Below, piece after piece: positions 9,770 through 60,000 of a stretch of 60,000 bases of DNA. Under the pieces are notes generated by a model. The model made no database searches. It saw only the letters and a program-made list of their open reading frames with translations, and was not told the origin of the DNA. Made by a program: the position numbers and the translations under genes. How positions within the stretch are numbered: position 1 is the first letter of the stretch; the number at the start of each line of letters is the position of its first letter. Source of the DNA: Malacoraja senta (Eukaryota); contig CM075987.1 of assembly GCA_038087875.1 (NCBI GenBank), positions 22,012,001 through 22,072,000 of the forward strand, given 5' to 3'.

Positions 9770-10062
9770 AGACACAAGAAACTGCAGATGCTGGAATCTG
9801 GAGCAAAACTCAAGGAGGGAATGAGTCTGAAGAAGGGTCTCACCTGAAACATCAACTACCCATGTTCTCCAGAAATGCTGCCTGACCTGCTGAGTTACTC
9901 CAGCAGTTTGCGCCCTTTTGTGTATTAACCAGCATCTCCAGTTGTTTGTTTCTACGAGGAGGGAATGGACAGGTCACATTTCGGGTCGGGACTGAAGAAG
10001 GGTCTCAACCCGAAACATCATCTATTTTTCCCCCACAGATGCTGCCTGACCCACCGAGTTCC
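9770..10062. mobile_element. Nested Penelope-terminus-derived short repeats
   Basis: aactgcagatgctgg / ctgaagaagggtctc...gaaac blocks shared with many other copies in the window. Confidence 0.7.
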
Positions 10063-13223: not shown

Positions 13224-13512
13224 ATGGCAGGTTCTAGTGAGTCAGGTCAGTATCTGGGCAAGAGTTTCTCTCTTATTATTTATTCTTATAAGGGGATTCA
13301 CTATCTTACTCTGCCCCATGTGCTGATAAGTATTTGTCGATATACATATAATATTTGCCGTTCTCTGGGTGTAAATATGGCAGGTTCTAGTGAATCAGAT
13401 CAGTACCTGGGCAAGAGTTCCTCTCTTATTATTTATTTTTATAAGGGGATTCACTATCTTACTCTGCCCCATGTGCTGATAAGTATTTGTTGATATACAT
13501 ATAATATTTGCC
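13207..13512 (+). repeat. 153-bp tandem duplication covering PTPA exon 1 and the start of intron 1 (13207-13359, 13360-13512)
   Basis: Two adjacent copies with 6 substitutions by my count. Confidence 0.97.
13224..13245 (+). CDS. PTPA: PTPA coding exon 1 (MAGSSES + G)
   Basis: aatATGG Kozak context; donor CAG|gtcagt; phase 1 joins exon 2 in frame (G+GC). Confidence 0.8.
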
Positions 13513-14814
13513 GTCTTTAAAGCTTACCAGTGCTGGCCTTGGTTTGATTACAATGAGTACGATTAATTGAATTATAATTTAACAACAATTTTATAATTCA
13601 CCTTTATTTTTTACATTTAGCAACTAATGAATCCCAAGTGCTTAGTGAAAGTTTTGAATAGGTCCGCTAATGAAAAAGAAAGATACCGTTGAGGCCACTC
13701 AGCTTTCAAACACAGTTGTGGTTGATTATCATGTCCGCTTATCTCCTTTGGGCCTATGTCGTAAATGCCATTACACACCGGGAACTCAAGTACTGACTAA
13801 GGGAGGGAATAGGCTCACAGTGTAGGAAACAATTGTAGTGGGACGTGTATATTCTCATTTTAAAAGCGTGCATTTGTTTTCCTGGTGTCGGCAATGGCAG
13901 AACAGTACTTTCTTTAACACAAGGGTCTAATGTAAACAGTTACCTAATTTACAAAAGTTGACAAATTTGTAAAGAGTTTGTTGCTAAGTTCACAATCCTT
14001 ATGACTTGAAATATGGAGATGTTTAAGTTCACAGATAACACAGGTAACATCAAGCTGTGAAGTTAGCTTTCAGAACAAGTGTCAATGTTCTCCCAAGAGG
14101 TCTGTCACCCAGAGAGAGACTGGATAATTATAGCAGACTTCCTTCCTCAAATGCTGTTAGTAAACCAGATAGTTTTGTTCAATTCGTTGCTTATTATTAC
14201 TTCATTCAAAGTATTCATTCAATCATTTACTTATACCATGATTTTTAAACTATTCCAGATATATTTAATTACTTGAATTTAAATTCTGAGCTGTGATGAT
14301 AGGATTCAAACTAATGTCTCTTGTTCACTAACTCAGAAAGCAAACCACTGGACCCATTCCTGAATCTTGAGTGCAACCTTAGCAATCGTGTTTGTGCAGC
14401 ACTGAGGGAGTGAGAATGTCATGTATTTCAAATAAGTTGTTAAATTAATGCCATCTTTTATCTCTTGAGTTGTGTGGGAGTTTAAAATATTATTTGTGTA
14501 GGAAAGAACTGCAGATGCTGGGTTAAACCGAAGATAGACACAAAATGCTGGAGTAACTCAGTGGGACAGATAGCATCTCTGGAGAGAAGGAATGGGTGAC
14601 GTTTCGGGTCGAGACCCTTTTCAAACTGAAAGTCACGGGAAAGGGGAACGAGAGATATAGACGATGATGTAGAGAGATATAGAACAAATCAATTAAAGAT
14701 ATGCAAAAAAGTAACAATGGTAAAGGAAACAGGTCAGTGTTAGCTGTAGCTACGTGAGAATGAAAGACTTGGTGGGGGAGGGGTGGAGAGAGAGGGAATG
14801 AAGGAGTTATTTAA

Positions 14815-16797
14815 TTTAAAGAATGCATGGATGTACTTCAAAAATTGTTCATCCCTGGCGAAAAAATAAAAAGGGGAAGGCGGCTCAACCGTGGCTAACG
14901 AGGGAAATCAAGGATAGTGTTAAATCCAAGGAAGAGGCATATCAATTGGCCAGAGGAAGGAGCAAACCGGAGGACAGGGAGAAATTTAGAACTCAACAGA
15001 GGAAGTCAAAGGGGTTAATTAAGAGGGGGGGGGGAAAGTGCATGAAAGAAAGCTTGCGGGGAATATAAAAACGGACTCTAAAAGCTTCTTTAGACATGTA
15101 AAAAGGAAAACATTAATGAAGACAAATGTAGATCCCTTGCAATCAGAGACAGGTGAATTTATAATGGGAAACAAAGAAATGGCAGAACAGTTAAACGAGT
15201 ACTTTGGTTCTGTCTTCACCAAGGAAGACACAAACAATCTCCCAGAAATACTAGGGGACCGAGGATCTAATAGGAGGGAGAAACTGAAGGGAATCCACAT
15301 TAATCAGGAAATGGTGTTAGGTGAACTGTTCGGACTGAAGGCAGATAAATCCCCAGGGCCTGATGGTCTGCATCCCAGAGTACTCAAGGAGGTGGCCCTA
15401 GAAATCGTGGATGCATTGGTGATCATTTTGAAAATGTTCTCTCAACTCTGGATCAGCTCCTGTGGACTGGACCCTAGCCAATGTAACCCCACTTTTTAAG
15501 AAAGGAGGGAGAGAGAAAACAGGGAATTATAGACCAGTTAGCCTTACATCAGTAGTGGGGAAGATGCTTGAGTCGATTGTTTATGATGTTATAGTAGCGC
15601 ATTTGGAAAGCAGTAACAAGATCGGTCAAAGTCAACATCTATTTATGAAGGGGAAATCATGCTTGACTAATTTTCTGGAATTTTTTGAGGATGTAACAAG
15701 TAGAATGGATAAGGGAGAGCGAGTGGATGTGGTGTATCTGAACTTTCAAAAAGCCTTTGACAAGGTTTGGTTTAGTTTAGTTTATAGATACAGCACGGAA
15801 ACAGGCCCTTCAGCCCACCGGGTCCGCGCCGACCAGCGATCCCCGCATATTAATACTTTCCTACACCCACTAGGGACAATTTTTACATTTACCAAGCCAA
15901 TTAACCCACAAACCTATGTGTCTTTGGAATGTGGGGGGAAACCAAAGATCTCGGAGAAAACCCACACAGGTCACGGGGAGAACGTACAAACTCCGTACAG
16001 ACAGCACCCGTAGTCGGGATCGAACCCGGGTCTCCCTCCGGCGCTGCATTTGCTGTAAGGCAGCAACTACCGCTGCGCCACTGTGACTGCCCAAATGGTG
16101 TCAGATTAGGAAAAAGGGAGGTCAGTCACGTAGGCAGTGAAGAGAGCTAATGGCATGTTGGCCTTCATTGTGAGAGGATTTGAGTTTAGGAGCAAGGACG
16201 TCCTACTGCAGTTGTACTGGGCCCTGGTGAGACCGCACCTGGAGTATTGTGTACAATTTTGGTCTCCTAATTTGAGGAAGGACATTATTGTTATTGAGGG
16301 AGTGCAGCGTAGGTTCCCCAGGTTAATTCCCAGGATGGTGGGACTGACATATGATGTAAGAATGGATCGACTGGGCTTGTATTCACTGGAATTTAGAAGG
16401 ATGAGAGGGGATCTTATAGAAACATATAAAATTCTTAAAGGTCTAGACAGGCTAGATGCAGGAAAAATGTTCCTGATGTTGGGGGAGTCCAGAACCATAG
16501 GTCACAGTTTAAGAAGTAAGGGGTAGGCCATTTAGGACTGAGATGAGGAAAAACTGCTTCACCCAGAGACTTGTGAATCTGTGGAATTCTCTGCTACAGA
16601 AGGCAGTGGAGACCAATTCACTGGATGTTTTCAAGAGAGAGTTACATTTAGCTCTTAGGGCTAAGAAATCAAGGGATATGGGGAAAAAGCAGGTACGGGG
16701 TACTGATTTTAGATGATCAGCCATAATCATATTGAATGGCGGTGCTGGCTCGAAGGGCCGAATGGTCTACTCCTGCACCTATTTTTCTAAGTTTCTA
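14815..16797 (+). mobile_element. CR1-clade LINE ORF2 fragment with 3' tail, internally deleted and interrupted by a SINE
   Basis: KSPGPDGLHPRVLKE, NYRPVSLTSVVGK, DVVYLNFQKAFDKV, LVRPHLEYCVQFWSP. Confidence 0.95.
15766..16091 (-). mobile_element. V-SINE (HE1-like) inside CR1
   Basis: Reverse complement of the SINE at 3494-3798, with the (tttag)n tail at the left. Confidence 0.9.
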
Positions 16798-17999
16798 CGT
16801 GGTTAGAGAAATCCATATTCATACCCCTGGGTTGTAAGCTGCCCAAGTGAAATATGAGATGATGTTTCTCCATTTGCGTTTAGCCTCGCTCTGACAATGG
16901 AGGAGGCCAAGGACCGAAAGGCCAGTGTGGGAATAGGACGGGGAAATAAAGTGTTTAGCAACCGGCAATCATGTAGGTCCAGGTGGACTTTGCGAAGATG
17001 TTCAGCGAAATGATCACCCAGTCTATGTTTGGTCTCGCCGATGTATAACAGTCCACATCTTGAACAACGGGATACAGTAGATGAGGTTGGAGGAGGTGCA
17101 AGTGAACCTCTGCCTAACCTGAAAGGACCGTCGGGGTCCCCGGACAGAGTCGAGGGAGGAGGTATAGGGACAGGTGTTACACCTCCTGCGGTTGCAGGAG
17201 AAGGTACCTGGGGATGGGGTGGTTTGGGTGGGAAGGGAGTTGCAGAGGGAACGGTCTCTGCGGAAGGCTGAAAGGGGTGGAAGATGGGAAGATGTGACTA
17301 GTGGTGGGATCCTGTTAGAGGTGGCGACAACAAAAATGTATTTGTTGTCACGCAAAGATCAGAGGAGATTTCCAAGATGTTGTGGCCAACACATATCTTA
17401 CAACCAATATAACTAAATATGTTTTTAAAACGAGATGCTGAAAATCTGAAAATTAAAAAGTGGATGTGCTTAGTGGATCAGGCAGCATCTGTGGAAGTAA
17501 ATTTTTCAGCTTGAAGTCCCTTCTTCAGCTGGGGTAAATTAAAAAACGGAAGTTCGTTTTTTTGTGGCAAAAAAGGCAGGCAGAGATAAATGAAAAGACC
17601 AAGGCAATGCCCAGAATTTTGTGTCTTAAAGGCAATGTCTGGAATAGGTTGAGACCAGAGGTGGGTGCTGTGGAGATTTCTGCAAAGCTGATTATTTGGT
17701 CATTTTTGTGGGAATTTGTTGTATGACATCAGCTGCTCATTTCCTACATTATGCAAGGTATTTCAAAAGTTCTTTATTATCTGAACATGCATTGTGAAAA
17801 GTGCTGTATAAATATGAGCTCTTTCTGTCCAGAAGCCGTCAGTGTTTTTTGGACAGAACTGCTTAGAGTCATAGAGTCAAACAGGCCCCTTGGCCGAACT
17901 TGCCCACCCTGACAAACATGCCCCATCCACACTAGTTCCACCTGCCTGCATATGGCCCATATCCTTCCAACCATATCCTATCCATGTAGCTGACCAAAT

Positions 18000-19620
18000 G
18001 TGCCTGGCCAAAAATCCTCTTTGGGAGGCATAACAAGATTAGACTAGGTGTCTTCTGCCAGGTAACTCATCTCATCAGGTTTGGGGTTGTGAGGTCAATT
18101 ATTCCAGCCAAGGACATCGTGGCAACAAACACAAAATGCTGGAGGAACGCAGCGCCTCAGGCAGTATCTGCGGAGGGAATGGACAGATGGCTCGAAGGGC
18201 CGAATGGCCTACTCCTGCACCTAATTTCTATGTATCTCTGACGTTTCGGTTTGGGACCCTTCTTCAGACGAGGTCTCTTCAGAAGGGTCCAGACCCGAAG
18301 CATCACCTGTTCATTTCCTCTCCAGATGCTGCCTGTTCGCTGAGTCCTCCAGCACTTTGTATTTTGCTCCAAATTCCAGCATCTGCAGTCGCTAGTGTTG
18401 ACATCACTGCACAAGTTCTTTAGGGCAGTGGCCTAGGCCCAAACATCAGCTACGACAGCTATGTTTTACCATCTTTCAATTGTAAGCAGAGTGCATATGT
18501 TTGCTGAATGGCACAGTGATTCTTTTGCAATTCCTCGACAAATAAACCAATCGATACCTACATGTAGCAGGAATTAGACTAGTGGCAAGTGACATTTATT
18601 CCATAATCGTGCCAGCAGGGAGTTTGTATACAGCTAATCCTCATGGCTTTACACTAACATACACATTCTCTGTCCATCCCCACCCTACATACAGCTTAAC
18701 ATGCTGTTTTTCTGTGCTCAGTTCTGGCAAAGAATTTTAGACCTGAAACCTTAACACTGTTTCTCTTCCCACAGAAGTGGCATGACCTGCTGAGTATTTC
18801 CAATATTTTCTGTTCTAAAATGCACTATAATTGTGCACCCAAGCTAGTCCAACATAACTTCCGTAAATCTGAGACCTTGATCACCAGGAAGGACTAAGGG
18901 CAGTAGGAACATGCAGACTCTATTGCCTGCAGGTTCATCTCTGTTGTACGGCATTAGGTACTAAGTTCTGGAGCTCCCACAAAACTACTTCAGGGGAGCG
19001 AGCGCCTTCACCAGAAGTAACACAGTGCTTCAGGAAGTTGGCTAATCACTGCCTTCTCAAGGGCACAGGGAGGATTAATAAACGGTGAAATTGCGGGTGA
19101 TACTCACATCCTGCAAGATCAATAAATTACAACACATTGTCCACATTCCCACTCTGCCGAACAACCACCCAAAGCCATTCATTGCCTACAATGCTGGTCA
19201 GGAGCGCGATGGAACACAACCACTTGAGTGGAGGAATACAACTCCACAACACACAAGAATCTTGACACTATCCTGGACAAATTAGCACTTCATTCACTGC
19301 CCTAAGCATCAGCACCTTCACTGTCAGTACATCAGGTCTGCAGTGTGTGCTCAACAAGGTTTATTTGACAACACTTCTAACTCATGACTGCCAACTCAGC
19401 ACTTCTTAAACCCATTGTCTCCACCAGCTAGAAGGACAAGGGAAATAGGTATATTTGATTGTCGCCATTCGTGACTTCCCTCCGTTAAACATTTATTTCA
19501 ATGTGGAAATATATCACTTTATTTGTTCTGTCTAAATCGTGGTGATTTACCACCACCTTCTCAAGTAGTTAAAGATGAACAATAAGTGAAACGAAAATGA
19601 AGCCTTGCTAATAATGCTCA
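18000..19620 (+). mobile_element. Fragmented old LINE (second family) with nested Penelope-derived short elements
   Basis: Shares motifs with 5570-6680 in opposite orientation; a fold-back insert occupies about 18125-18395. Confidence 0.55.
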
Positions 19621-24570: not shown

Positions 24571-24920
24571 TTGTAGGAATGAACTGCAGTTGCTGGTTTA
24601 AACCGAAGATAGACAAAATGTTGGAGTAACTCAGCGGGACATTCAGCATCTCTGGATAGAAGGAATGGGTGATGTTTCGGGTCGAGACCCTTCCTCAGGT
24701 TGAATCAAGGGAGAGGGAGATTCAGAGAAAATATAAGGTGTGAAAACAAGACAAAGGGGATGGAGATCAAGGAAAATGTAGAATAGATCATTGTTAGCTA
24801 GGAGAAGGTAACAACAAGCAAACAGATACAATGTAAAGGAGGACTAGTCGGAGAACTGAGAAGAGGGGAGGGATGGAGAGAGTGGGAAGGCAAAGGTTAC
24901 TTGAAGTTAGAGAAGTCAAT
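24571..24920 (-). mobile_element. Penelope terminal fragment
   Basis: Similar to 14497-14810 and 48262-48625; includes a ctgaggaagggtctcgacccgaaac motif on the minus strand. Confidence 0.75.
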
Positions 24921-27855: not shown

Positions 27856-28869
27856 GTATGGACTTATTCAAAGAGTGAATTACTGACATGAATTTTTTTT
27901 AAAGTTACATCACTAAAGCTTTTTTTCAAGTGAACTTTCAGCAATGCTAATTTAAAAAATATATCGTTTTAAATTTTGAGGTAGCAGTTGGAGGAGGAAT
28001 AAATACATTTGCCTGTGGTTTAAATGTGGGAAAATAAATTTCTGGTTGGTCTCAAGAACTTCTTTACAAAATCATTTAATGTTTTAATTTCACATTTGAC
28101 ATAAACAGAAACCAGAAAAGGTAAAAATAAATCATCTGATGTTGGTCTGAAGGAGGATCCTGAGCCAAAATATAGTCTGTCCATTTCCTCCACGGGTGCT
28201 GCCTGACCCACTGAATTCTTCCAGGAGATTGCCTTTCACACATGCAAAATTGTTGGGTGTTGGGATAGGCAAGAACTACAGTATGTTAGTTGGTTATTTA
28301 CGATAAGAACTGAGATGACTGTTTCTTCAGTGATCATATGTTTCTCATAATTTATGTCCATCCCGTTGCATAATGATATCAATCAGGTTCCCCAACCTTT
28401 CCCTGCTTTGGCTTCTCGGCAAAGATGATGTATCTATCCTGGAAGAACTGTGGAAGGAAATGGACTGATGACATTTTGGGTCTGAACCCTTCTGCAGTCT
28501 GAAGAATGGTCCTGGCCTGCTGAGTTTTTTCTAGCACTTTGTTTTTTGTTCAGGATTCCAGCATCTACAGTCCCTTGTGCCTCCATGTATATATGTTGCT
28601 CTATTTGGATTTGGCTCCTGTTTCATGCTGGGAATCTATGTCTTTTCCACTCTGGCTCTATAGGAAAAATATCAGTGCCTAGTTTTTCAGCCATGTAGAG
28701 AGAGGATATTGTGCAAGTCAAATAGGTCAGTTGATGTCTGGGCTATCTTATGAAAATTGGAGACATTGATGTGGTGCAGAAGGATAGATCTTATCATGAG
28801 GAAGAGAACATAATATAAAGGGTTGTTAGAAATGGATCCAGAACATTTGGCTATTGCACCCTGTCCCAT

Positions 28870-37746: not shown

Positions 37747-37846
37747 GTCACGAGGCTGCATTTGCTGCGTTCCTCTGCTGCCTCTGTAAAATTGGAGTTC
37801 TGAAAGTGGATGATCAGCATGCCATTGTATTTTGTATATTTGATCG
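37747..37846 (+). CDS. PTPA: PTPA coding exon 6 (GHEAAFAAFLCCLCKIGVLKVDDQHAIVFCIFDR)
   Basis: HEAAFAAFLCCLCKIGVL as in human; cag/gtgagt boundaries; 100 nt. Confidence 0.97.
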
Positions 37847-37939: not shown

Positions 37940-38406
37940 CAGGGGTCGGCAACCTACGGCCCCCGGGCCGAATGCGGCCCGTAACCCGAAATCACCCGGC
38001 CCGCAGGCGGATTTTTCCCCCCGTAATCATCCGGCCCGCCGGGCGCCCCGAGCAGCGGCCGAGCACGCCGAGCTCTGACTGTACCGCATCTTGCGCAAAG
38101 CCGCTGGCACGGACGCGCACCTTCTGTGAACACGTTTAAGAAAGAACTACAGATGCTGGAAAAATAGAAGGTAGACAAAAATGCTGGAGAAACTCAGCAG
38201 GTGAGACATGCAAGGATTGCATGAGGCTGCCTCACCTGCTGAGTTTCTCCAGCATTTTTGTCTACCTTCTGTGAACATGTGATTTGATGTCTGCCATCCG
38301 GGGCGGGATGGGGCGGGATCCATATGTACACGTGATAGATGTGGCCCGCCATCCGCTCACAGACGTGCGTCCTGGACCCTATGCAGAACAAGGTTGCCGA
38401 CCCATG
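37940..38406. mobile_element. hAT (Charlie-type) MITE with 8-bp TSD
   Basis: TIRs CAGGGGTCGGCAACCT / AGGTTGCCGACCCATG; TSD AAGTAGAG at 37932-37939 and 38407-38414; GGCCCG subterminal motifs; CpG-rich. Confidence 0.93.
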
Positions 38407-39202: not shown

Positions 39203-39327
39203 GTACCTGCAGGTGATGCGGAAGTTGCAGAAAACATATCGAATGGAGCCAGCGGGCAGCCAAGGGGTCTGGGGCCTTGACGACTTCCAGTTCCTTCCCT
39301 TTTTTTGGGGCAGCTCCCAACTAATAG
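39203..39327 (+). CDS. PTPA: PTPA coding exon 7 ([41 protein letters not shown])
   Basis: Signature [19 protein letters not shown]; cag/gtaaag boundaries; 125 nt. Confidence 0.98.
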
Positions 39328-41819
39328 GTAAAGTACCATCATCAGTTTCCCCCCTTTCACCTGATAACTCTCCCTCTCCAACCCGACCCTCTGAACTCTT
39401 ACTACCTTCACACCACCATTTTTAACCAGGCTGGATCTCTATATTTCAGTACATTGATCCAGTTATCTCACCTTGAGTAATTTCAATTCTGGACACAGTA
39501 AATGTGGAACGGTATATTGGTCTTGGTTAAAGTAGAGTGCAAATTCAGCAGGTTGATGTCAGAGATAAAATTGTTAATTACAAGGAGAGATTGCATATTG
39601 TTTGGCTATCATTCCTATATAAGGATTTAGGACGATCTAATTGAGATGTTCAACATGTTTTTTTAAATAAATATTTCAGAGTAAATAACTATTTCCAATG
39701 GTAGGTGTCAGGATAAAGAGGACTGTACTTTACTATTAAAGATTGACACAAAATGCTGGAGTAGCTCAGCGGGTCATGCAGCATCTCTGGAGAAAAGGAA
39801 TGGGTGACGTTTTGGGTCGAGACCTTTTCTACAAATGCTGCCGAATTTTGTGTCTATCTTCAGTGTAAACCAGCATCTGCTGCTCCTTCCTACACACTTT
39901 ACTATTAAAGTTGGATAGTCGTGATTATTGTCAGCAGGCACTTTTTTTACTCGCAAGGTAATATAAATCCAATGCTGGTGTTCCCAAAGAGCTATTGTGG
40001 TTTTGGGTCAACTGTAAATGTTAGTGCGGTACTAAGATTGATAGATTTTTGTTATTAACCAATACAGTTATAGTTCACATTAGTCATGATATATTTGAGG
40101 GGCTGAACAGATTTAATGGGGTGAATGGCCTACTCATCACATGCACCATATGTGGTAGGAAGCCAGACTGAGGGGCAACTGTGAATGTACAACTTCAATT
40201 CACACATTAACATACAGGCATTCAGTCTTTTTTATAATTGCCATCTGCGTTCTTATTTTCCCATTGCTCAAAATTCTGAGCTCAATAGGTTGGGCTGGAA
40301 TTAGCTCCCTCATATATGACGGTTCTTTTCAGTTTGTGCCTGCTTTACCACAATTTCTTTCCCGACCACCCTGTATTGGCATACGCAGCCTCTGTCCATT
40401 GTTTCACATCCTACAGCAAACATCCATTCCTATCTCGCATAGAAAGACTTGAGAAATTGGACTGTTTTTCACAGGGGTCAATAAAGGACAGGAGTGATTT
40501 AACAGCAGTCTTCAAAATTATGGTAGTAGAATAGATATTTCACTTGGCACGAGCATCAGTAACTTAAGACCCCTAGTGGAGGTGAGGAGAATTTCCTTTC
40601 TAGTCCAGCAGGCTGTTATGACGTGGAATGCTTTGCCTGAAAGGGGTTGAAGGTGTGGGGCATTAAGTGGAGGGGGGGGTCGTTCATTTAGGAAGGAGAT
40701 GAGGAGGAATTTATTTAGTCAGAGGGTGGTGAATCTGTGGAATTCATTGCCACAGTAGGCTGTGGAGGCCGACAATGGGGATTTTAAAGGCAGAGATAGA
40801 TAGATTCTTGATTAGTACGGGTGTCGGGTTATGGGGAGAAGGCAGGAGAATGGGGTTAGGGGGGAGGGAGAGATAGATCAGCCATGATTGAAAGGCGGAG
40901 TACACGATGGGCCGAATGACCTCATTTTACTCCTATCTGTTATGAACTTATGAAAAGGATGCCAAAATACATTTCAGTGAGGAATTGGACCCTAGTTTAA
41001 TGTTACAAATTCTTATGTTCGATGTAATATAAACATGAAAAGTAAAAGTGTATAGAAGAGCAGGGAAACCAAGAGTAATTGGGACAAATTGGTAAAGTAG
41101 TTTCAAAGTAGCAGCAAAGACACAAAAGACTGGAATGAGCTTCTGTAAGTGTACTCAAAATCAAAATATCTAGAACATTGGAAGTGTGAAATAAAATAGA
41201 AAATTCTGGGGAAACGCAGCAGGCCAGACAGCATATGTAGAAGGGGTAAAGGTCAACATTTATTGTTTGTGAACTTTCGAATTGGAAAGGTTTGTACAGG
41301 TAACATGTTTGTTATTGAACGGGAAGTGGATGAGGAGGAGAAAATAAAAAATGAAAATAAAAAAATGGGGAGATCAGTGATAGGGTGGAATATAGGTGAG
41401 AATAAATGACAAAAGAATTGATAGTGCAGGAAAAAGGGGGTGGTAATTGGATGAGTAAAGAAATATAGGTTTTATGGGTATCCTGCAACCCAACTGCATG
41501 AATATTGAAGTATCCAATTTCAGGAACTGAACCTTTTAAATTGTCAAATCATAAGATGATCTGCTGTTTTCAAATGCGCCAAAAGTGTAGGAAATGATGG
41601 AGAAGAGCAAAGAGTGGATTGGATATTTAAAGTGATAGGTGTGCAGCTTGATCTTACTTCCCAATTGGAAAGTGTTCACAAAGCAGTCTATCTGCCCATG
41701 CTTTCAGTCAGTGTCTTAACTGGATGCACACAGGGGAGCCTTGGGGAAAATAAATCATATTTTTATTTACATGTTTTTATTTCAGGACTACATTTGAATT
41801 GTGTTCATATATCTTTCAG

Positions 41820-41920
41820 ATCACCCCACTCTGACACCGGTGCATTTTGTGGATGAGAAAATAGTAAATGAACACCACAAGGAATACATGTTTCTGGAAT
41901 GCATCAAGTTTATTAATGAG
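41820..41920 (+). CDS. PTPA: PTPA coding exon 8 (DHPTLTPVHFVDEKIVNEHHKEYMFLECIKFINE)
   Basis: Matches human DHPYLEPRHFVDEKAVNENHKDYMFLECILFITE; cag/gtgaga boundaries; 101 nt. Confidence 0.96.
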
Positions 41921-44801: not shown

Positions 44802-46431
44802 CAGGGCCCTTCATAATGTTTGGGACAAAGACCCATCATTTATTTATTTGCCTCTGTACTCCACAATTTGAGATTTGTAATAGTAAAAATCACATGTGGT
44901 TAAAGTGCACATTGTCAGATTTTAATAAAGGCCATTTTTATACATTTTGGTTTCACCATGTAGAAATTACAGCAGTGCTTATACATAGTCCCCCCATTTC
45001 AGGACACCGTAATGTTTGGGACACAGCAATGTCATGTAAATGAAAGTAATTATGTTTAGTATTTTGTTGCATATCCTTTACATGCAATGACTGCTTGAAG
45101 TCTGCGATTCATGGACATCACCAGTTGCTGGGTGTCTTCTCTGGTGATGCTCTGTCAGGCCTGTATTGCAGCCATCTTTAGCTTATGCTTGTTTTGGGGG
45201 CTAGTCCCCTTCAGTTTTCTCTTCAGCATATAAAAGGCATGCTCAATTGGGTTCAGATCGGGTGATTGACACTCAAGAATTTACAATTATTTAGCTTTGG
45301 AAAAACTCCTTTGTTGCTTTAGCAGTATGTTTGGGATCATTGTCTAGCTGTAGAATGAACTGTCGGCCAATTAGTTTTGAGGCATTTGTTTGAACGAACA
45401 GATAGGATGTGTCTATACACTTCAGAATTCATTACACTACTAACAACAGCAATTGTATCATCAATGAAGATAAGTGAGCCAGTGCCTTCAGCAGCCATAC
45501 ATGCCCAGTCCATAACACTCCCACCATCATGTTTCACAGATGAGGTGGTATGCTTTGGATCTTGGGCAGTTCCTTCTCTACTTCATACTTTGCTCTTGCC
45601 ATCACTCTGATATGTTAACCTTCGTCTCATCTGTCCACAAGACCTTTTTTCCAGAACTGTGGTTGCTCTTTTAAGTACTTCTTGGCAAACTGTAACCCAG
45701 CCATCCTATTTTTGCGGTTAACCAGTGGTTTGCACCTTGCAATGTAGCCTCTGTATTTCTGTTCATGAAGTCTTCTGCGGACAGTGGTCATTGACAAATC
45801 CACACCTGACTCCTGAAGAGTGTTTCTGATCTGTCGGACAGGTGTTTAGGGATTTTTCTTTCTTATAGAGAGAATTCTTCTGTCATCAGCTGTGGAGGTC
45901 TTCCTTGGCCTGCCAGTCCCTTTGCGATTGGTAAACTCACCAGTGCTCTCTTTCTTCTTAATGATGTTCCAAACAGTTGATTTTGGTAAGCCTTAGGTTT
46001 GGCTGATATCTCTTAACAGTTTTATTCTTGTTTCTCAGTCTCGTAATGGCTTGACTTTCATTGGCACAACTTTGGTCCTCATGTTGATAAACAGCAATAA
46101 AAGTTTCCAAAGGTGATGGGAAGACTGGAGGAAAGACTAGGTGCTAAGAGCTCTCGTATACCTGCATTATGGAGGCATTTAAACACACCTGAGCAATTAC
46201 AAACATCTGTGTCCCAAAATTTATGATGCCCTGAAATGGAGGGACTATGTATAAACACTCATGCAAATTCTACATGGTGAAACCAAAATGTATAAAAATG
46301 GCCTTTATTAAAATCTGACATGTGCACTTTAACCACATGTGATTTTTTTCTATAACAAATCTCAAATTGTGCAGTATAGAGGCAAATAAATAAATGACGG
46401 GTCTTTGTCCCAAACATTATGGAGGGCACTG
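44802..46431 (-). mobile_element. Full-length Tc1/mariner transposon fossil with long IR/DR terminal repeats
   Basis: TA on both flanks; inverted repeats of about 225 bp (44802 to about 45027, about 46207 to 46431) with internal direct repeats taatgtttgggaca; length 1630 bp. Confidence 0.96.
45056..46082 (-). pseudogene. Frameshifted Tc1-type DDE transposase
   Basis: Motifs VLWTDETK, KHDGGSVMDW, QLDNDPKHT and SPDLNPIEH are present in order but no continuous ORF remains. Confidence 0.92.
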
Positions 46432-48261: not shown

Positions 48262-48625
48262 GATATGCAGTGGTATGAATATTGATTTCTCTAACTTCAA
48301 GTAACCCCTGCATTCCCTCTCCATCCCTCCCTCACCCAAGTCACACCAGCTTCTCATTCTCATCCACCCAACAGCTAACAATGAATGGCCTGTTTCCTTT
48401 ATCATCGTTTCCTTTTTTGCATATTTTTCATTCATTGGACTATATCTCTCTATATCATTGTCCATATCACTCGTTTCCCTAGGGCATGACCTTCAGTCTG
48501 AAGAAGTGTCTCGATCCGAAACGTCACCCATTCCTTCTCTCCAGAGATGCTGCCTGCCCCGCTGTGTTACTCCAGCATTTTGTGTCTATCTTCGGTTTAA
48601 ACCAGCAACTGCAGTTCCTTCCTAC
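48262..48625 (+). mobile_element. Penelope terminal fragment
   Basis: Reverse complement of the 14497-14810/16800 junction; includes ctgaagaagtgtctcgatccgaaacgtc. Confidence 0.78.
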
Positions 48626-49629
48626 AACAAACAACTCTGCCATGATCTAGGAAGATATCCTCAGTGAGGAGGATAGGTATTAACATAGAACCACAAGACT
48701 CAACCATGGCTCAGTAGGCAACAGTGTCACCTCTGAGTCAGAAGATTTGAAGGTTCAAACGTCATGCCAAAAATCATGATGATTAAGCCTAGTTTGACAG
48801 TTTAGTGTAGTTTTGTGTCATCTGATTAGATGTTAAACTAAGGACCTGGATGACAGGCATGAAGTTCCCATCACTGTTTAAATCCCATGTGTAGGAAGGA
48901 ACTGCAGATGTTGGTTTACACCGAAGATAGACATAACATGCCGGGGTAACTCAGCGGGACAGGTCGAGACCCGAAACGTCACCCATTCCTTCTCTCCAGA
49001 GATGTCTGTCCCACTGTGTTACTCCAGCATTTTGTGTCTATCTTCGGTGTACTGTTTAAATCTCGATCCTTCAGCCTATAGCACTATAGTAATTATGTTC
49101 ATTTTATACATTAGTACTTTTGGGTCCTTGCTGTCCTCAAACTGCTGCTTAGCAAAGCACTATGATTTGTGGTGCTATAGAAATGCAAGTTTTGGGTTTT
49201 TGTTTGCTGCTTTAGCAACAATGAGCAGGCTGCATTATGCGAACAGCCTCTGTGGTGAAGTCATTTCCTGACACACCGCTGGCCAGGGCCTATAGATATC
49301 GAGACAGAAGGAGACCTGCACTTGAGAGGTACTTTCCAGCACTGGCAGATGTTTCTGCTTGAGTGTGGCACGGATGTGTCAGGAAAGTAATGACACCCCT
49401 CTCTTTGTCATTAGGTAGGTCCATAAAAAACGCAAACTGGAATCTTTTGTTTCCAGACGACAGATTATAAAAGCAAGGAAGCGGTGTTGAACTTGTACAA
49501 AGCTTTAATTGGACCCACTCAGAAGTATTGACTAAAGTTTGAGGGCACTTCCACTATTGAAAAGTTGCAGGAAGAGATGAAGGTGGTGAATTTTTGACTC
49601 AATTTTACTCATTATTAGCAGTGAAGTTA

Positions 49630-49866
49630 AGGGCCCGTCCCACTTACGCGATTATTTCGGCGACTGCCAGCACCTGTCATGGTTGTGACAGGTCGCCGAC
49701 ATGTCGCGGGGTGACGCCTGTATGGTCGTGAGTAGTCGCCCAAAGAGTCATACCTTTTTCTGGTCGCCGCTGGATTTTCAACATGTTGACATTTTTTGGC
49801 GACCTGCTGCGACTATGACGGGTGCCGGCAAGTCGCTGAAAAAATCGCGTAAGTGGGACAGGCCCT
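49630..49866. mobile_element. PIF/Harbinger-type MITE
   Basis: TIRs AGGGCCCGTCCCACTTACGCGATT / AATCGCGTAAGTGGGACAGGCCCT with extended imperfect inverted arms; TTA on both flanks. Confidence 0.9.
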
Positions 49867-50934
49867 TTATGAAGAGGGACTTGAGAAAACACTGCTTTCC
49901 AAATTCAGACGGTTAAATTTGACATGATAGATATCTCCAAAGTTAAGATCTTATAAAGAATGACATGGATTTACAGCACAAAACCGGCCAAAAAAGTCTG
50001 AGCCAGTCTTCAGGTTCCACCCCAACCTCCCACTGCTTCTTCCCCTGTGACCCAATCACAATATTCTTCCATTCTCATTTCCTTCATGTACTTAAAGTAA
50101 TGTTCCACAATCTAGCCACTCTTTGGGTTAGGAAGATTCTCATAATTTCTTTGTTGTGACTACCTTTAGTTTTGAATCCCCATGTGAAAAAAATATTGTT
50201 TTACCCTATCAATCCCTTGCATACAGTGAGTATTAGGAAATCCGACTGGATGGTCAGAGAGCAATGAGGTATTTAGAAATAAGGAACTGCAGATGCTGGT
50301 TTACAAAGAAAAACATAAAGTGCTGGAGTAACTCAGCCGGTCAGGCAGCATCTCTGGAGGGCATGAATAGTGATGTTTTGGGTCGGGACTCCTTTTCCGA
50401 CTCCCTGCCTTTGAGATATATCGGTGGAAACCAGAACACACCGTGGAAACCCAAGCAGTCACAGAGAGATTATACAAACTCCACCAGCAGTCAGGAACTA
50501 ACCCGGGTCTCTGGCATGGTGAGACAGCAGTTCTACTCGCTGCACCACTGTGTGTTATGTTGCCGTTTATTTAAAGTCTATGACTTGAGATTACTGAGAC
50601 AATTATGAAATGAATTATTTTATCCCAAGCACTTCTAAAATCTGTTAGATTTCCCTCCACCTTCATTGCTCCAAGGAGAACATAGCACAATGTTGAAAGT
50701 TGCTGGCCAAGCAGGTCTGAACCATTGATCAAGAGACGTGAGCTTGAATCACATAGTCACAGTTGTGCAATTTTTGCTATTCAAGTTAAATAGCAATAGC
50801 TGCTATTTTTTAATAAACTAAAACTACCAAGTTTTTGCAAACTTGTTGTGAAACCCCACCTGTTTCCACTAAAGTCCTGTAATGAAGGAAATCTGCCATC
50901 CTTTCCCAGTCTGACCCATGTATGTTTGATTCCA

Positions 50935-51123
50935 AGGTAGACAAAAGTGCTGGAGAAACTCAGCGGGTGCAGCTGCATCTATGGAGCGAAGGAAATAGGC
51001 AACGTTTCGGGCCAAAAGGTTGCCTATTTCTTTTGCTCCATAGATGCTGCTGCACCCGCTGAGTTTCTCCAGCACTTTTGTCTACCTTCGATTTTCCAGC
51101 ATCTGCAGTTCCTTTTTAAACAA
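50935..51123. mobile_element. Fold-back (palindromic) Penelope-derived short element, 14-bp TSD
   Basis: Inverted arms of about 70 bp; TATGTTTGATTCCA at 50921-50934 and 51124-51137. Confidence 0.88.
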
Positions 51124-52329
51124 TATGTTTGATTCCAGACTTGTTCCTCGTTTCAGAGGCAGAGTTAGGGATGAACAATGAATGCTGGCAATTCCTATGA
51201 TCTCCTTATCCCATGAGTAAATAAATTATAAACTTGTCCATTCCTTTTACATAATTAAATCCCCTGGCCAGGTTGCCAAGCACAGGACGATGGGCTGAAT
51301 GGTACGCTGCTGTGCTGGAATATTCCTCGATTCATCCACTTCAGTGGGCTGTTTGATCCTTTTGTTCTTGGCCATCAATCTGGATGAGTGCTTCGTATTG
51401 CACTGACTTAACATCCTGTTTTGGTGCGTAAGCTTCTTGCCGCCTTTAATACGTTGGATCAACTCCCATCAAACCATTTATTAAACTTGAGGTGTGTAAT
51501 AGATTTGGAATTTGCACCTGGCTTGGTTTGCAGGTAACTGAAGTTGTCTTAGTAACTGTGAGTTCAAGGCACGGGAGGGGAGAGGTGTGTGATTTGCACC
51601 ATTACTCACAGATGATTAAATGGATTCACTTGTGATCGTTGGTTTCATTTGTTTTTGAGAGGCTGCAGTTATATGGAGAGACCAGAGAAGCTGGGATGGT
51701 TCTCCTTGTACAGATGATTAAGGCAGATGTAACAAATGCATTTAAAGTTTTGATAATGTAGGTAAGAAAAACAATTTCCTATGGTAGAAGGAACCAGATT
51801 TAAAGTAATCGACAAGAGGAGAACTTAATTCCTGCAGGAAGGTATGATGATTTGGAATGCACGGCCTGACAGGTTGGTGCAAGGTATTCAAAGTAACTTT
51901 TGCAAGCAAATTCAATATGACTTGATTTTGGAGAAGTGTGGAAATTGCAAACATGGATTGGGCGCAGGGTATTGGGACCAATTGCACAGCACGTTCAAGA
52001 CACTCGGCTGAAGAGCCAACTCCAGTCTGTAGGCTGGTGTTGTGGTTTCTGAAAAACATCATAGAATTGTTTTTAAATCAAAAATGCTTTCCCACCATCT
52101 GTCCATGCGACAAACTGCCTGTTGATGTACCTGTACACACCACAGTGCACGATGGTGGGGGAGGGCAGGTGAGCACACCGTTTTTGGTAACTGGTGCACC
52201 TGTGCACATTTTTTTGTTTTTTTGTTTAATGCTATTTAAAGTTCTTGAGTTTCCCTGGCTCATTTGGGGATGACAGAATAATGATTCAATTCCTGTTCTG
52301 TGCCAAGTTTGCTTTCTATCGGAAATTGC

Positions 52330-54065
52330 AATTAGTTATGAAGGTGAAATGGGCAAAATTTAAAGGGGATGCGTGGGGCAGTTTTTTTTTTACACAGAGA
52401 GTAGTCAGAGTTATATAGCATGGAAACAGGCCCTTTGGCCCAACCTGCTTATGCCGACCAAGATGCCCCATCCACACTAGTCCCACCTGCCTCTATTTAG
52501 CACATATGCCTCATATTCATGTAACTGTTCAAATGCCTTTAAAATGTTGTTTAGTACCTGCCTCGGCTACCTCCTCTGCCAGCTTGTTCCATATACCCCA
52601 CCACCCTCTATGTGAAATAGTTGCCCCTCAGGTTCCTATTAAATCTTCACGCCATAAACCTATGCTCTCCGATTCTTGATTCCCCTACTCTGGGTAAAAG
52701 CACTGTACAATTACCTTTTCTATAACCTTCATAATCTTATACACCTCTGTAAGATCCTCCATTATTTTTCTGCACTGCAAGGAATAAAGACCTAGCCTGC
52801 CCTTCCACCTACCTCCTGTACCTCACGCCCTCAATTCCTGACAACATCCTCGTAAATCTTCTTTGCACTCTTTCCAGCTTAACGACATCCTTTCTATGAC
52901 CAAAACTGAACACAATATTCCAAAATGCGGCCTCACGTCTTGTACAACTTTAACGTAACATTTCAACTTCTAATCTCAATTCCTTTACTGATGAAGGCCA
53001 ATGTACTGAAAACCATATCTACCTGTGACACCAGTTTCACCGCTCCTAGATCCCCTCTGCTCGACAACTCTCCCCAGAGCCCTGCCAGTAACTGTGAAGG
53101 TCCTGCTCTAGTTTGACTTCCCAAAGTGTAGCACCTCACACTTATCTGCATTAAACTCTATTAACCATTCCTCAGCCCACTTGTGCAACTGATCAAGACC
53201 CTGCTATTATTTTTGATAACCATCATCGTTATCTACGATACCAAACATTTACATGTCATCTACAAACTTACTAATCATGCTTCCTCATCCAAATCGTTGA
53301 TATAAATCACAAACAGAACTGATCCCTGAGGCACACCGCTAGTCACAGGCCTCCAGACCCGAAGAAAACCTTCCACAATTACACTTTGCTTTCTTCCATG
53401 AAGCCAATTCTCTATCCAGTTGGCAGGCCCTCCCTGGATCCCATGTGATCTAACCTTCCAGAGCAGCCTACCATGAGGAACCTTATCAAATACCTGTGTT
53501 CAAGAAGGAACTGCAGATGCTGGAAAATCGAAGGTAGACAAAATTGCTGGAGAAACTCAGCGGGCGCGGCAGCATCTATGGAGCGAAGGAAATGGGCAAC
53601 GTTTTGGGCCAAAACGTTGCCTATTTCCTTCACTCCATAGATGCTGCCGCACCCGCTGAGTTTCTCCAGCAATTCTGTCTACCTTATCAAATACCTTGCA
53701 GAAGTCCATATAGACAACATCTTTGCCCTAAGCATCCCTTTTGATTCCTACTTAAAAAACTTGATCTCCCATGGACAAAACCTTGCTGACTATCACTCAT
53801 TCGCCCATTTATGCAAATGCATATATATCTTATCCCTTAGAATCCTCTCCAATAGTGGGTGCCTGGAACGTGCTGCCAGGGATGGTGGTGGAGACTGACA
53901 CGACAGGAGCGTTTAAGAGGCTTTTAAATAGGCACATGGATATACAGGGAATTGAATGATATAAATCACGTGTAGGCAGAGGAGGTTATTTTAATTGGCA
54001 TCATGATAGGCACAGAAATTGTGGGCCGAAGGGCCTGCTCGTGATTTCTTGTTCTGTGTTCTTTG
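52330..54065. mobile_element. CR1 3' fragment (+) interrupted by a longer CR1 fragment (-, about 52405-53850)
   Basis: tttttttttacacagagagtagt resumes as agtgggtgcctggaacgtgctgcc at about 53854; minus-strand RT motifs lie between. Confidence 0.8.
53496..53680. mobile_element. Fold-back Penelope-derived short element, 16-bp TSD
   Basis: ACCTTATCAAATACCT at 53480-53495 and 53681-53696; near-perfect palindrome centred on caacgttttgggccaaaacgttg. Confidence 0.9.
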
Positions 54066-54929: not shown

Positions 54930-55157
54930 ATAGACACAAATGCTGGAGTAACTCAGCAGGCCAGGCAGCATCTCTAGAGAAAAGGAATAGTTGACATTTC
55001 GGGTCAAAAACCCTTCTTCAGACTGAAGAAGACTGAAGGGTTCGACCCGAAACGTCAACGATTCCTTTTCTTCAGGGAAGCTGCCTGACTCGCTGAGTTA
55101 CTCCAGCATTGTGTGTCTATTTTCGATGTGAATCAGCATCTGCAGTTCCTTCCTACA
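54930..55157. mobile_element. Fold-back Penelope-derived short element
   Basis: tagacacaaatgctggagtaactcagc ... gctgagttactccagcattgtgtgtcta arms around opposed ctgaag...cgaaa motifs. Confidence 0.8.
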
Positions 55158-55284
55158 CCCCAACTAGTTAGTTATTTCCTGATTGATCCATACAGAGGAG
55201 AAAATGCAAAAATACATTGACCAGTTTGCTGAGCAGCCACATAAGTATCATTGATAATGCCACAATCTGTGTTTTCTCCTCCAG

Positions 55285-55392: not shown

Positions 55393-55474
55393 GTGAGTGC
55401 AACTGAGGCGTTAACACTGTGCCGGTGCAATAGTTCCTCAGTGAAATTGTTTGCCCCAATTAAGGATTTTAATT

Positions 55475-55639
55475 GAAGGTACACAAAAATGCTGGAGAAA
55501 CTCAGCGGGTGCAGCAGCATCTATGGAGCGAAGGAAAGATTTTTTCCTTCGCTCCATAGATGCTGCTGCACCCGCTGAGTTTCTCCAGCATTTTTGTGTA
55601 CCTTCGATTTTCCAGCATCTGCAGTTCCTTCTTTAACAC
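55475..55639. mobile_element. Fold-back Penelope-derived short element, 14-bp TSD
   Basis: TAAGGATTTTAATT at 55461-55474 and 55640-55653; perfect arms of about 63 bp. Confidence 0.9.
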
Positions 55640-56894
55640 TAAGGATTTTAATTTGTGGATTAGTCTTATCTTTTTCCATAACTATTTTAAAACTGAAAAA
55701 AATATTGTCACTAGTCCCAAAGTGCTTCCTTACTGACATTTCAGTCATTTGCTCACTTCCAGAAAGGTGGAAAGTTTGGAAATAAAAGCAGTTACATAAA
55801 TGCAAATCTTCCCTTTTTACTGTTATTTTGTTTTTCCCTTTTCAAAAGGGAAAAGGGAACTTTCTGCACTCTTGTAGGAAGGCTAGTTTCAAAATTGGAT
55901 GGGGGTGAAGAACAGATAGATTACCCAGATTCCTGAACAGAATTCTTTTTTTGGGTGGGGGTGGATTTCAGAGACTATTGAGTCTGTGAGCACTCTCTAT
56001 AATTTCAAATCTGCTGCTGATTTATCTCATGTTCTGTGCTTCACTTTGACTTTTTCAGTCCCCTATGTCTTAAAGTTTTTGTTTAAAAGTAAGTGGGGTG
56101 ATGTGTGATGTTCCCTGGCAGATATGGGGGTTTTGGGGGAAAGTTGAGCAAACAGCTGATGTATCAAGAACCACAAATTTGAGCTGGACTCACATTGCAC
56201 TCCTTGAGCAAACCAATAAAGCGGGCATTTCCCATTTCATGACGTGGCAGTTTGTCACAAAATCTAATGATATATTCTGAGTCATAAAATATGCTCTGGA
56301 GAATATTAAGTTTAATGCAGTCTTTTAAAAATATTTGATCACATTGGGCCTGGCACTTTTCGTTACAAACTGGAGGTGCCGAAAGGCAAAATGGTGATAC
56401 CTCTCTGTGCAAAATCTAAATCTCCAAATGTGTCAGACATTGAAAAACTTAGAACTTAGCAGGAAAATAAATATAAATAGCAGCCGTAGATTACCAAATT
56501 AAATGATTAACTCACTGGTTACAGTAAAAAGAAAAAATTTGCATTTATATTGTGTCTTCACCACCTCGGTACATCCAAAAATGCCAATCAACGGTGCTGT
56601 GTGTTACATAAGTTGAAACTTAAGCCAATTTGCATTTCAATAAAGTTGGCTCATGATGGCCAAGTCACAAAGGGTCTGGAAAAGAGTCTTGACCCGAAAC
56701 ATCATCTATCCATGTTCTTCTGAGATACTGGCTGACCTGATTTACTCCAGCACTTTGCCTCCTTTTGTGTAGAGACCCGATTGTTTTTGAAACACTAACA
56801 TGGGATAATCTACTATGATGCCTTGTATTTACATACCAACTTCTAATGTTACTAATGATTACAAAGGAGTTCACAGAAGCATTATTAAACAAAA

Positions 56895-57180
56895 TGGGTA
56901 GCACAGTTCTGGTGTGGCATTTTCACATTCTCCCTGTGACTGCGTGTGTTTCCTCCTGGTTCCTCGGTTTCCTCCCAGATCCCCAAAATATTTGGGTTGG
57001 AAGGTAATCGACCAGAGTAAATCATGCCTATTGTGGTAGAAATTGGGGAGGTTGTTTTTGGGAAAGTGGGTAAAATAAAATGGGCTAGGATAGGATTAGT
57101 GTAAAAATGTGCTGGTTGGTGCAGACTTAGGGGGCTGAAGGGCCTGTCTATATGTCTGTCTATGACTTTGCATCTAAAAT
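56895..57180 (+). mobile_element. Degenerate V-SINE fragment
   Basis: cattctccctgtgactgcgtgtgtttcctcc...gggctgaagggcctgt. Confidence 0.6.
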
Positions 57181-60000
57181 TTGATACAGAGCCACAGATT
57201 TTAATATAAAGGTATTGCTTAATCAGTAGCCAATAGAGTGAAGAGTGAATGGGATGCAATGAGATAGAATAAGGGCAGCAGAGGTTTGGATCACCAGGTT
57301 TTGTGGGAGTAGATGTGGGCACAGTTTAATGAACCCTCTGAAGTATGACCGTTCTTCATTTCCACAATACTGAACTCGAGTCTTTCTGACAAAGGGAGAA
57401 TTGCTACCACTGAGCATGGTTGACAAGTTGAAATATTGACGTATCCTTTTATTTGTTAACTGACGCCATGTATTTGTGTGGTGGGTGGGTAGAAAGGGGT
57501 AGAGTTGAAGGGAAAAAGCTGTTCCTACATTTTCTCCCATCCTGACGCAATTTTCTTTTGCTTTCAATGAAGCCGTTCACTAGACTTTGCTCAAAACAGG
57601 TGACAATACCATTAGGACTGTCCATGTCTAAACACTCAAAATCATGCATAACCTTTACTGAACCTTGTGGGTGCTGACTGTTTGATAGTTGTGGGAAAGC
57701 CAGACTTGATGTTCTCACCCAGTGCCCGCTTTACACATAAACATTTCAAAGCTTTTATGGGGAAGAACAGTGCTCATCACAAATGTTTAGTGTCCCATAA
57801 AGGTTCTTCATGTTGTACTTTTCATTACTAAGAAAAGACTCGGCTGACTTTCCCTGTTGGTGAGGCTGACAGAAGGTCATCTTCTGTTGAAGAGGAGAGG
57901 GGACAAAGAAGGAACGTGCCTAATATTCATGAACAGCTGTGAAAGGGACAATGGAAATCAGGCACCTCCATGAGAAGTAATCTACTAAATTGCAATGTTT
58001 GGTGCTGAGAAAGGGCTTCAGGCTCAGACTTGAACAGCATATAATTGGACAGGCCAGATGATAACACAGCAATCTGATCCCTGGATGATGGGGTAGGGCT
58101 GGGCATTATGTCAAGGGGTGGAATTATAAATTTGGGCAGGGAGAAAGCTTCAACGAGCAAGAGGCTGATCTTCCTCATCAAAAGGACTGTCTCTTTAAGA
58201 TATTGGTGCAGGAGGAAGTATTGAAGGCAGCTGGCATGGGTCAGGCATCCTTCCTGAAACACAGTCCTTTAGCCAGAGGAAGCTGAGCTAAATGTTACTT
58301 GAGGCAAAACCATACACAAAAGACAGCCTGTTACTGAGTCTACCAATTGACGGACAGGAAGTGATGCATGTGATCTTTTGCATGCTGCACTACCTCATTC
58401 CCTCTCCCTTTGCTGCCAGTGTTTTACGTTTGCTTTTAAATTGAGCAGCATGCTTTGCTTTTTAATTCATACGGTTTCAATATAAACTTACCAAGAATTT
58501 TCAGCAGAGAAACTAGTCATTCAGCTTTCTTGCTTATGTGGTATTAACGTGTTACGTGAGCCACTTCCCATCCCACTACCTCACAGTATCAACACGTCTG
58601 TTTATTTGTTTCTGTTTCAAGTGTTTATCTAACTTTGATTAAATGCATCTATCTTATTCCACGGCAGCATCAGTTCCCACATCTAACCACTCTGGGCACT
58701 ATTGATAACCATGTTATATTCTACCTTACTGCTCCACAAATTGTCTTCCCTCTCGCTCCCTTATCAAACACTCCTATAATGTTAGACCTCTAACAAGTTA
58801 TCCCCTCAGATTTTGTTTTATGAGAGAAAAGGTCTCCATCAGTTTTAATCTTTACTGACGGTGAATGGAGGCCTTGGCTCAGGAGTGGTGCTTTCACCTC
58901 TGTCAGAAGCCAATGAATTTAAGTCCTACTCCAGACACATAAGCACAAACACTAGGCCAACATTCTTGTGCAATATGTATGTTTTTAAATGGGTAATTTG
59001 GCTATTTGCTGCCGAAAGAAAACGATTAGAAAATCATGCCACAGACTTGATTTAACTGAAACCTTCCTTTGGCTGATATTTTTTCTTGCCTGGGTACAGT
59101 TCCCACCAACTCTTAAATACCCTCCTCCAGCAGTTACTCTGTGTGTGTTGGAGTACACTGTATATATTGGCAGGCAGTTCATTATGAGAGGCATCTCGGC
59201 TAAGCATCAGAGTGATTTTTTTAATTTATTTTTTGTTGCATTTTATTTCCACTCCCTGGCCTAAGGGCATTGGAGCTAATGCCTGGTGCAACGCTTGCAA
59301 TGATAAATTAACTCTGTGCAGATCAAGAATCAAATATTCATGACAGAAGGCGGTAATTTTGCTCGTCACGCCTCTGCTGGAACTTTGAAAGAGCAACTCT
59401 GTTAGTCCATTTTACCCTGCTTTTTCCAGAAACCTTATACGTTTCCCACTTGAGGTATATATCCAACCTTTATTTGGAAATGACTCAATCTGTAACCACT
59501 GCCTTTCAGGCAACACATTGTAGATCATAACCAGATGCTGGGTATTAGCGTTCATGTTTCGTCTGGTTGCAGAGCACCCCCACTGTTGGGAAATAGATTA
59601 GCCCTATTTACCCCACACAGTTTTGAATATTGTATATAAAATAAGTTTTACTGAGATCTTCGTCGATGATTTGGAGTACGTGGACCTGTTTGCCTGCCCT
59701 CACAAGCTATTGATCCAGTGTGGTAGCAGTTGCTGGATGAGTATCCAGAAGCCCAGAATCTTGATCTAGTCCTATAAACTCAACCCCCCCAGTGGGAAAT
59801 TTAAATTAAAATGATTGTAAAACCACATCGGGTTCAATAAAGACAATGAATTCTGCTCCCCTCGTCTGGTCTGACCCATGTGGGACTCTACACCCTTCAA
59901 TGTGGTTGGCTCCTGACCGTCTCTGAGAAGGCCTATCAAAGCACTCTGCTCAAGGTTTAATTAGGACTGGACGATAAATGGAGATCTTGGCGGCAACACC

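Follow-up and report, generated by a model that had tools for sequence, protein, structure and literature searches.

The short fold-back inserts in a 60,000-nucleotide stretch of the Malacoraja senta genome (the window) are very probably severely 5'-truncated, dead-on-arrival insertions of an EN+ Penelope-like element (PLE) of the Neptune/Nematis type, each a separate insertion that takes the form of an inverted copy plus a tail. They are the shortest form of an insertion pattern already described for PLEs and, because this layout is known, the finding will not surprise a PLE specialist. In the typical layout, an inverted pLTR lies adjacent to the copy, one end carries a 31-bp tail, target duplications (TSDs) measure 8-10 bp, and the inverted junction has palindromes that were read as self-priming (PMC3846280). 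The accounts of general PLE layout in PMC8557442 and PMC8969392 agree with it, including the inverted copy and a tail of 30-40 nt. The origin of the tandem and inverted structures of PLEs is called unresolved in PMC8557442 and PMC11167929, and the value of the fold-backs lies in the test material they provide. They are short, abundant, and assembly-friendly, with both junctions and the turn lying within 200 bp.

Six fold-backs bounded by direct repeats had been reported in a sequence-only reading of the window. The coordinates and lengths of the six repeat pairs are as reported, and all six pairs are exact and extend no further. Four older or decayed loci (54930, 18120, 9770, and 28455) bring the number of fold-backs in the window to at least ten.

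38119..38277, minus strand: fold-back with a 14-bp TSD, 7-nt microhomology, and filler at the turn
39727..39910, plus strand: fold-back of a second subfamily with a 15-bp TSD; the tail arm is partly deleted, and the short arm extends beyond it on the upstream side
48873..49062, minus strand: fold-back with a 12-bp TSD, a turn in hammerhead stem II, and a tail arm with an internal deletion
50921..51137, plus strand: focal fold-back, broken down below
53480..53696, minus strand: fold-back with a 16-bp TSD and 5-nt microhomology; turn as in 50921, centre base sense
55461..55653, plus strand: fold-back with a 14-bp TSD, arms 63/63 identical, and a 5-nt spacer
54930..55158, plus strand: older fold-back absent from the earlier reading; turn at a palindrome around a CTGAAGA box, no significant TSD
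18120..18400, plus strand: old fold-back with a CR1 3'-end fragment within its short arm, no clear TSD
9770..10061, minus strand: old fold-back that contains a nested non-inverted copy (9824-9956)
28455..28576, plus strand: decayed fold-back; turn at the palindrome used by 54930, centre base sense

The inserts between the repeats of the six copies span 131-189 bp, and the repeats measure 12, 14, 14, 14, 15, and 16 bp. In a chance control, 8 of 3000 random boundary pairs at 130-190 bp spacing reached at least 12 bp, and some of these random draws may themselves have fallen on true insertions or tandem repeats. The fold-back inserts are real, well beyond chance. Each of the six has the head-to-head layout with a full terminus on one arm that had been claimed for it; the tail is on the right in three and on the left in three. 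Identity of the two flanks suggests that the direct repeats are target duplications. Target duplication implies staggered nicks with 3' overhangs, as in target-primed insertion. An exact 12-16 bp duplication flanks six of the ten fold-backs and none of the four older ones. A search for degenerate TSDs at five other copies gave no significant case (0/5), the best P value being 0.051 for the long PLE copy. Five of the six TSDs exceed the 58% AT content of the window, and no common nick-site sequence was found among the six targets. In total, 23 loci of the window resemble the terminus, one of which is a purine-rich chance match.

The anatomy of these inserts is clear in the copy at 50921, which is made up of the following parts.

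50921..50934: left TSD, 14 bp; its last base is a 1-nt microhomology with the element
50935..51010, minus strand: short arm, the inverted PLE 3' region without the tail
51004..51018: turn, an odd palindrome at hammerhead stem II and the GAAA box, ~112 nt from the terminus; centre base antisense
51012..51088, plus strand: portion of the long arm that pairs with the short arm
51089..51123, plus strand: unpaired tail of 35 nt with the AC-rich terminus at its end
51124..51137: right TSD, an exact repeat of the left TSD

Its arms are identical at 72/77 positions, and those of the 53480 copy at 73/77. The short arm had been described as variably truncated, but its deficit is constant. Measured against its own tail arm, the short arm of the six copies lacks 40, 38, 33, 36, 40, and 34 nt. 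When microhomology with the target is credited, the deficit becomes 33, 35, 32, 35, 35, and 34 nt, which places 6/6 copies at 32-35 nt. The deficit is fixed in this range, and the asymmetry is the published PLE tail of 30-40 nt and not the new feature it had been taken for. In the 48873 copy, a single case, the tail is 4 nt longer and the arm ~6 nt longer, and the offset is still 32. The ends of seven short arms cluster within ~11 nt (P = 1.3e-4 under a uniform null over 65 nt).

Microhomology is found on one side only. At the short-arm end it measures 7, 3, 1, 1, 5, and 0 nt in the six copies, a sum of 17 compared with ~2.2 expected under a rough geometric null. At the tail end there is at most ~1 matching base, the parent sequence being judged from other copies. 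The microhomology noted earlier at 38264 and 53681 is present at both sites, but at 38264 it is 7 nt long and not 5.

The body of the fold-backs derives from the 3' end of a PLE, as had been proposed, and matches positions 14496-14630. The long element to which these positions belong had been presented as a parent at 14497-17330. The body does match its terminus, but the element is not continuous: a CR1-like LINE on the opposite strand takes up ~2 kb of its span. The region 14496-17330 is a 5'-truncated, minus-strand PLE fragment, and it is listed here with two non-inverted copies.

14496..14823, minus strand: 3' untranslated region and terminus of the long PLE fragment
14824..16796, plus strand: CR1-like LINE fragment inside the PLE fragment, with an RVT_1 match; boundaries approximate
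16797..17330, minus strand: frameshifted C-terminal PLE coding fragment with a CX4CxxC linker finger and a GIY-YIG endonuclease
48268..48628, plus strand: non-inverted copy with ORF end, 3' UTR, hammerhead-like motif, and tail; it spans the point of the CR1 insertion in the long copy
24572..24914, minus strand: non-inverted copy with an intact minimal hammerhead-like core

Near 15750-16100, another short insertion interrupts the CR1-like LINE at 14824-16796, and further CR1 3'-end pieces lie at 18202, 21577, and 54255. The segments 14484-14495 and 17333-17343, on either side of the long PLE fragment, may be the decayed remains of a target duplication of 11-12 bp (P = 0.051). The copy at 48268-48628 connects the end of the ORF to the terminus. 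Judged by its linker finger and its GIY-YIG domain, the parent is an EN+ PLE of the Neptune/Nematis type. According to PMC8557442, Neptune and Nematis are marked by a CX2-5CxxC linker finger, which Penelope/Poseidon lacks. The GIY-YIG core of the 16797-17330 fragment carries inner cysteines. The protein P0001 matches the endonuclease fragment (tblastn E = 2e-20) and Pfam GIY-YIG at the cut-off, while the two PLE frames of the window gave no Pfam match of their own (0/2) and a PDB sequence search with the endonuclease frame returned no match. Relatives of P0001 carry RVT_1, and the longer ones, at 530-1100 residues, are reverse transcriptase (RT) proteins. Identity is highest (73-76%) for relatives named from a bamboo shark. 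Of 121 relatives, 96 have the YIG motif, and 94 of these carry the linker finger. A Poseidon parent was considered and dropped, given the CX4CxxC finger in the window fragment and in 94/96 relatives. No RT portion of a PLE and no full-length PLE copy were found within the window.

Where do the arms turn? The turn lies at -130 relative to the terminus in 54930 and 28455, at -115 in 48873, and at -112 in 50921 and 53480. These three positions coincide with native palindromes of the non-inverted copies. Two copies, 55461 and 38119, have their turns at other sites, where no native palindrome was scored and filler is present, and the filler at 38119 includes a short self-copy. In 39727, the arms are joined via a short match. 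The six copies have five different turns, and the copies fall into at least two subfamilies that are ~67-82% identical between groups.

Most of the turns fall on native palindromes within a minimal-hammerhead motif. A minimal-hammerhead core with a very short helix I of only ~2 bp is located ~110-135 nt from the terminus. Four exact cores are present in the window, all within this PLE family, compared with none in 50 mononucleotide shuffles. The bulged base and the G-C pair of the motif agree with features of the minimal hammerhead given in PMC4209133, and the motif is a predicted ribozyme. A search of Rfam gave 16 matches, all of them generic hairpins below the gathering score, and no hammerhead. 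Ribozyme cleavage was considered as the source of the template 5' end. It was ruled out because arms run past the predicted cut site in 50921, 53480, 48873, 39727, and 54930. Among the non-inverted copies, 9 of 13 have 5' ends at -121 to -135 (median of two or three references), a figure of little weight since old subfamilies may lack alignable upstream sequence. RNAalifold on the terminal region gave one 4-bp helix and no covariation. A three-helix model that includes a long-range stem had 88.6% of its cells paired, with covariation not above that of shuffles. Two complementary 7-bp motifs at about -83 to -76 and -24 to -17 are retained in most copies, and could pair into a stem around the second start site, although without covariation support.

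How do such inserts form? Retro-insertion at a staggered cut with a second priming or switching step had been suggested, and it is supported as an interpretation. In the account preferred here, which has about an even chance of being correct, both staggered nicks would prime reverse transcription ~34 nt apart and the two cDNAs would join at a palindrome. The PLE protein would nick the two target strands 12-16 nt apart and leave 3' overhangs. One 3' end would prime, without base pairing, at the AC-rich terminus, whereas the second would prime ~34 nt further in, often aided by a few matching bases, and would produce an inverted arm without a tail. Both cDNAs would stall early on uncleaved RNA, in most cases at the hammerhead-like motif 110-135 nt from the terminus. 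Their 3' ends could then anneal at palindromic sequence or be end-joined with filler, and host repair would fill in the strands and so duplicate the target. A more specific version is marginally less secure. It holds that a dimeric PLE enzyme primes simultaneously at both nicks with a fixed ruler (a 12-16 nt stagger and 32-35 nt between starts), and that the cDNAs stall at the hammerhead and anneal via its palindromes. If this is true, dimeric dual priming would yield the tail, the inverted pLTR, and the junction palindrome in one step.

Biochemical support for dual priming comes from a purified anole PLE. This enzyme cuts and extends both strands, and its two RNA start sites bracket the tail; it needs no homology at the start and takes uncleaved RNA as template (PMC11167929). 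The in vitro support concerns a Poseidon element, whereas the element in the window is Neptune/Nematis-like. Dual priming from both nicks has been proposed for L1 (PMC2837659). In the freely accessible literature searched, no account was found that applies dual priming to the inverted ends of PLEs or that proposes the dimeric model with its fixed ruler.

The chief rival is a single priming event, possible but distinctly less likely. A tail-primed cDNA would snap back at a palindrome, self-copy as far as the protein bound to the last 35 nt, and join the other target end by microhomology. Turns at native palindromes, private variants common to both arms of a copy, and the short self-copy within the filler of 38119 speak for snap-back, and self-priming at junction palindromes has been proposed in PMC3846280, there on an antisense template. 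However, snap-back leaves the second in vitro start site (PMC11167929) unused. The base at the centre of the junction bears more directly on the choice. A tail-primed snap-back predicts sense centres only, whereas the annealing of two cDNAs allows a centre in either orientation. Read with the tail on the right, three copies (53480, 48873, 28455) have a sense centre and three (50921, 54930, 39727) an antisense one. Dual priming is favored over snap-back because antisense centres exist. To accommodate these 3/6 junctions, and the 39727 short arm, which holds sequence upstream of the tail arm, snap-back needs later flips or deletions. Palindrome loops can flip, and arms can homogenize, after insertion, and this would blur the tests based on centre bases and shared variants. 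The evidence on mechanism is thin, as there are only six informative junctions: the other four of the ten fold-backs gave no usable centre, three of the six are old or partly deleted, and the sense base of the young subfamily was taken from the other subfamily, the young one being without an upstream parent of its own in the window. A density of ~ten copies per 60 kb implies that one genome would supply enough junctions for the centre-base test. Scored across a genome, the fixed offset together with the mixed junction centres would be a cheap way to test a step in PLE integration that is still open.

Could the fold-backs instead be copies of a few fold-back masters, transcribed and re-inserted by PLE proteins, with 5' truncation trimming the short arm? 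Non-autonomous PLE derivatives exist (PMC8557442; bioRxiv 10.64898/2026.07.22.740005), and 50921 and 53480 agree in turn and in short-arm end and are 91-92% identical. Yet such a family is improbable. Between these two, the centre base differs, as do variants present on both arms. Five turns and two subfamilies among six copies are also at odds with a few masters, and a fixed end is unexpected from 5' truncation. The differing turns, the subfamilies, and the both-arm private variants leave the earlier proposal of a non-autonomous hairpin family unsupported. In the four copies of the young subfamily, seven variant calls fall on both arms of a copy and seven on one arm, a result that point mutation of a master would not produce, although later arm-to-arm conversion could. 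Because the arms of one copy share private variants, separate insertions are preferred to an amplified hairpin. The second arm is optional and long duplications occur in the family either way, because the non-inverted copy at 9824-9956, nested in the arm of an older fold-back, is flanked by an exact 11-bp direct repeat (9813/9957). A separate 21-bp direct repeat is located at 10062/10092, beyond the 9770 fold-back.

For rotifer PLEs, self-priming on an antisense transcript has been proposed; here it is very unlikely. It is the published reading of head-to-head junction palindromes (PMC3846280), and three junction centres are antisense, but the other three are sense, the sense arm has 32-35 nt that are missing from the antisense arm, and the anole enzyme uses sense RNA (PMC11167929). 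A TIR DNA-transposon MITE, which the inserts resemble in being short, non-coding, palindromic, and bounded by direct repeats, can be dismissed almost entirely, in line with the sequence-only reading, because the ends are asymmetric with inverted repeats that do not reach both of them, the direct repeats vary from 12 to 16 bp instead of being constant, and the body is a PLE 3' end, which is also present in non-inverted form and linked to a GIY-YIG ORF. Fold-backs of this kind are likely to be misfiled as MITEs or microRNA hairpins.

Several known systems resemble the fold-backs in part. Pen2a_Av and Pen2_Av of Adineta vaga (PMC3846280) have a head-to-head 5'-truncated inverted copy, a one-sided tail, a junction palindrome, and a TSD. 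In contrast to the Adineta vaga PLEs, the 131-189 bp inserts of the window have no ORF and no intervening sequence between the arms. Their TSDs are 12-16 bp long compared with the 8-10 bp quoted for rotifer copies, and their density of ~ten loci in 60 kb is unlike that of the copies described in PMC3846280. The Poseidon element PAc of Anolis carolinensis (PMC11167929) shares a hammerhead ~110-130 nt from an AC-rich start and AT-rich targets. As described, PAc lacks the CX2-5CxxC linker that the parent here possesses, and the six targets show no evident shared copy of a 5'-ATT-3' cut motif. No inverted-arm or TSD model is given in the passages of PMC11167929 that were consulted. Twin or dual priming of L1 (PMC2837659) is alike in second priming from the top-strand overhang, in microhomology, and in an inverted structure within 7-20 bp TSDs. 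In L1 twin priming, however, the inverted pieces do not overlap and their positions vary, whereas here both arms carry the same stretch and the second start has a fixed position. Non-LTR retrozymes (bioRxiv 10.64898/2026.07.22.740005) are likewise short, non-coding, and PLE-derived, with type I hammerhead motifs, but they are head-to-tail tandems with whole ribozymes, whereas the ribozyme here is mostly cut off at the turn. A retrozyme identity was rejected since the arms are head-to-head and the neighboring cores at 9827 and 9992 derive from a nested insertion. No description of the family in cartilaginous fish was found in the freely accessible literature searched. A search of metagenomes with the 19-nt terminal motif gave 26 loci, none of which (0/26) extended past 29 nt, and all were judged to be chance matches.

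All six fold-backs first reported lie within introns of the plus-strand PTPA gene, as had been stated. The parts of the gene that frame them are listed below.

37747..37846, plus strand: PTPA exon upstream of the 38119 copy
39203..39327, plus strand: PTPA exon (Pfam PF03095, E = 3e-22)
41820..41920, plus strand: PTPA exon that opens the long intron with 48873, 50921, 53480, and 54930
55393..55398, plus strand: splice donor of the next PTPA exon

A motif search of 55400-60000 found no last coding exon and, because of this, PTPA probably extends past the window. The 55461 copy is a near-perfect palindrome that starts 68 bp past the splice donor. It is the youngest-looking copy and, of all the copies, the best candidate for being polymorphic or affecting splicing. 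Folding of the 50921 copy gave -144 kcal/mol (z = -19.7), and its hairpin would fold on either strand. The double-stranded RNA stems predicted earlier for the PTPA pre-mRNA are a sound prediction of such folding. If the density of the window held genome-wide, introns would carry many dsRNA stems of 60-80 bp, possible substrates of ADAR or Dicer.

At 49629-49867 lies a different palindromic element that has the look of a true TIR MITE; its long nested inverted arms (37 bp at 92%, then 33 bp) have no relation to the PLE end. A reading frame on the minus strand at 45400-45560, in the long PTPA intron, resembles a Tc1/mariner transposase fragment. At 13203-13493, a tandem duplication of ~120 bp is visible as a repeated peptide in the reading frame.
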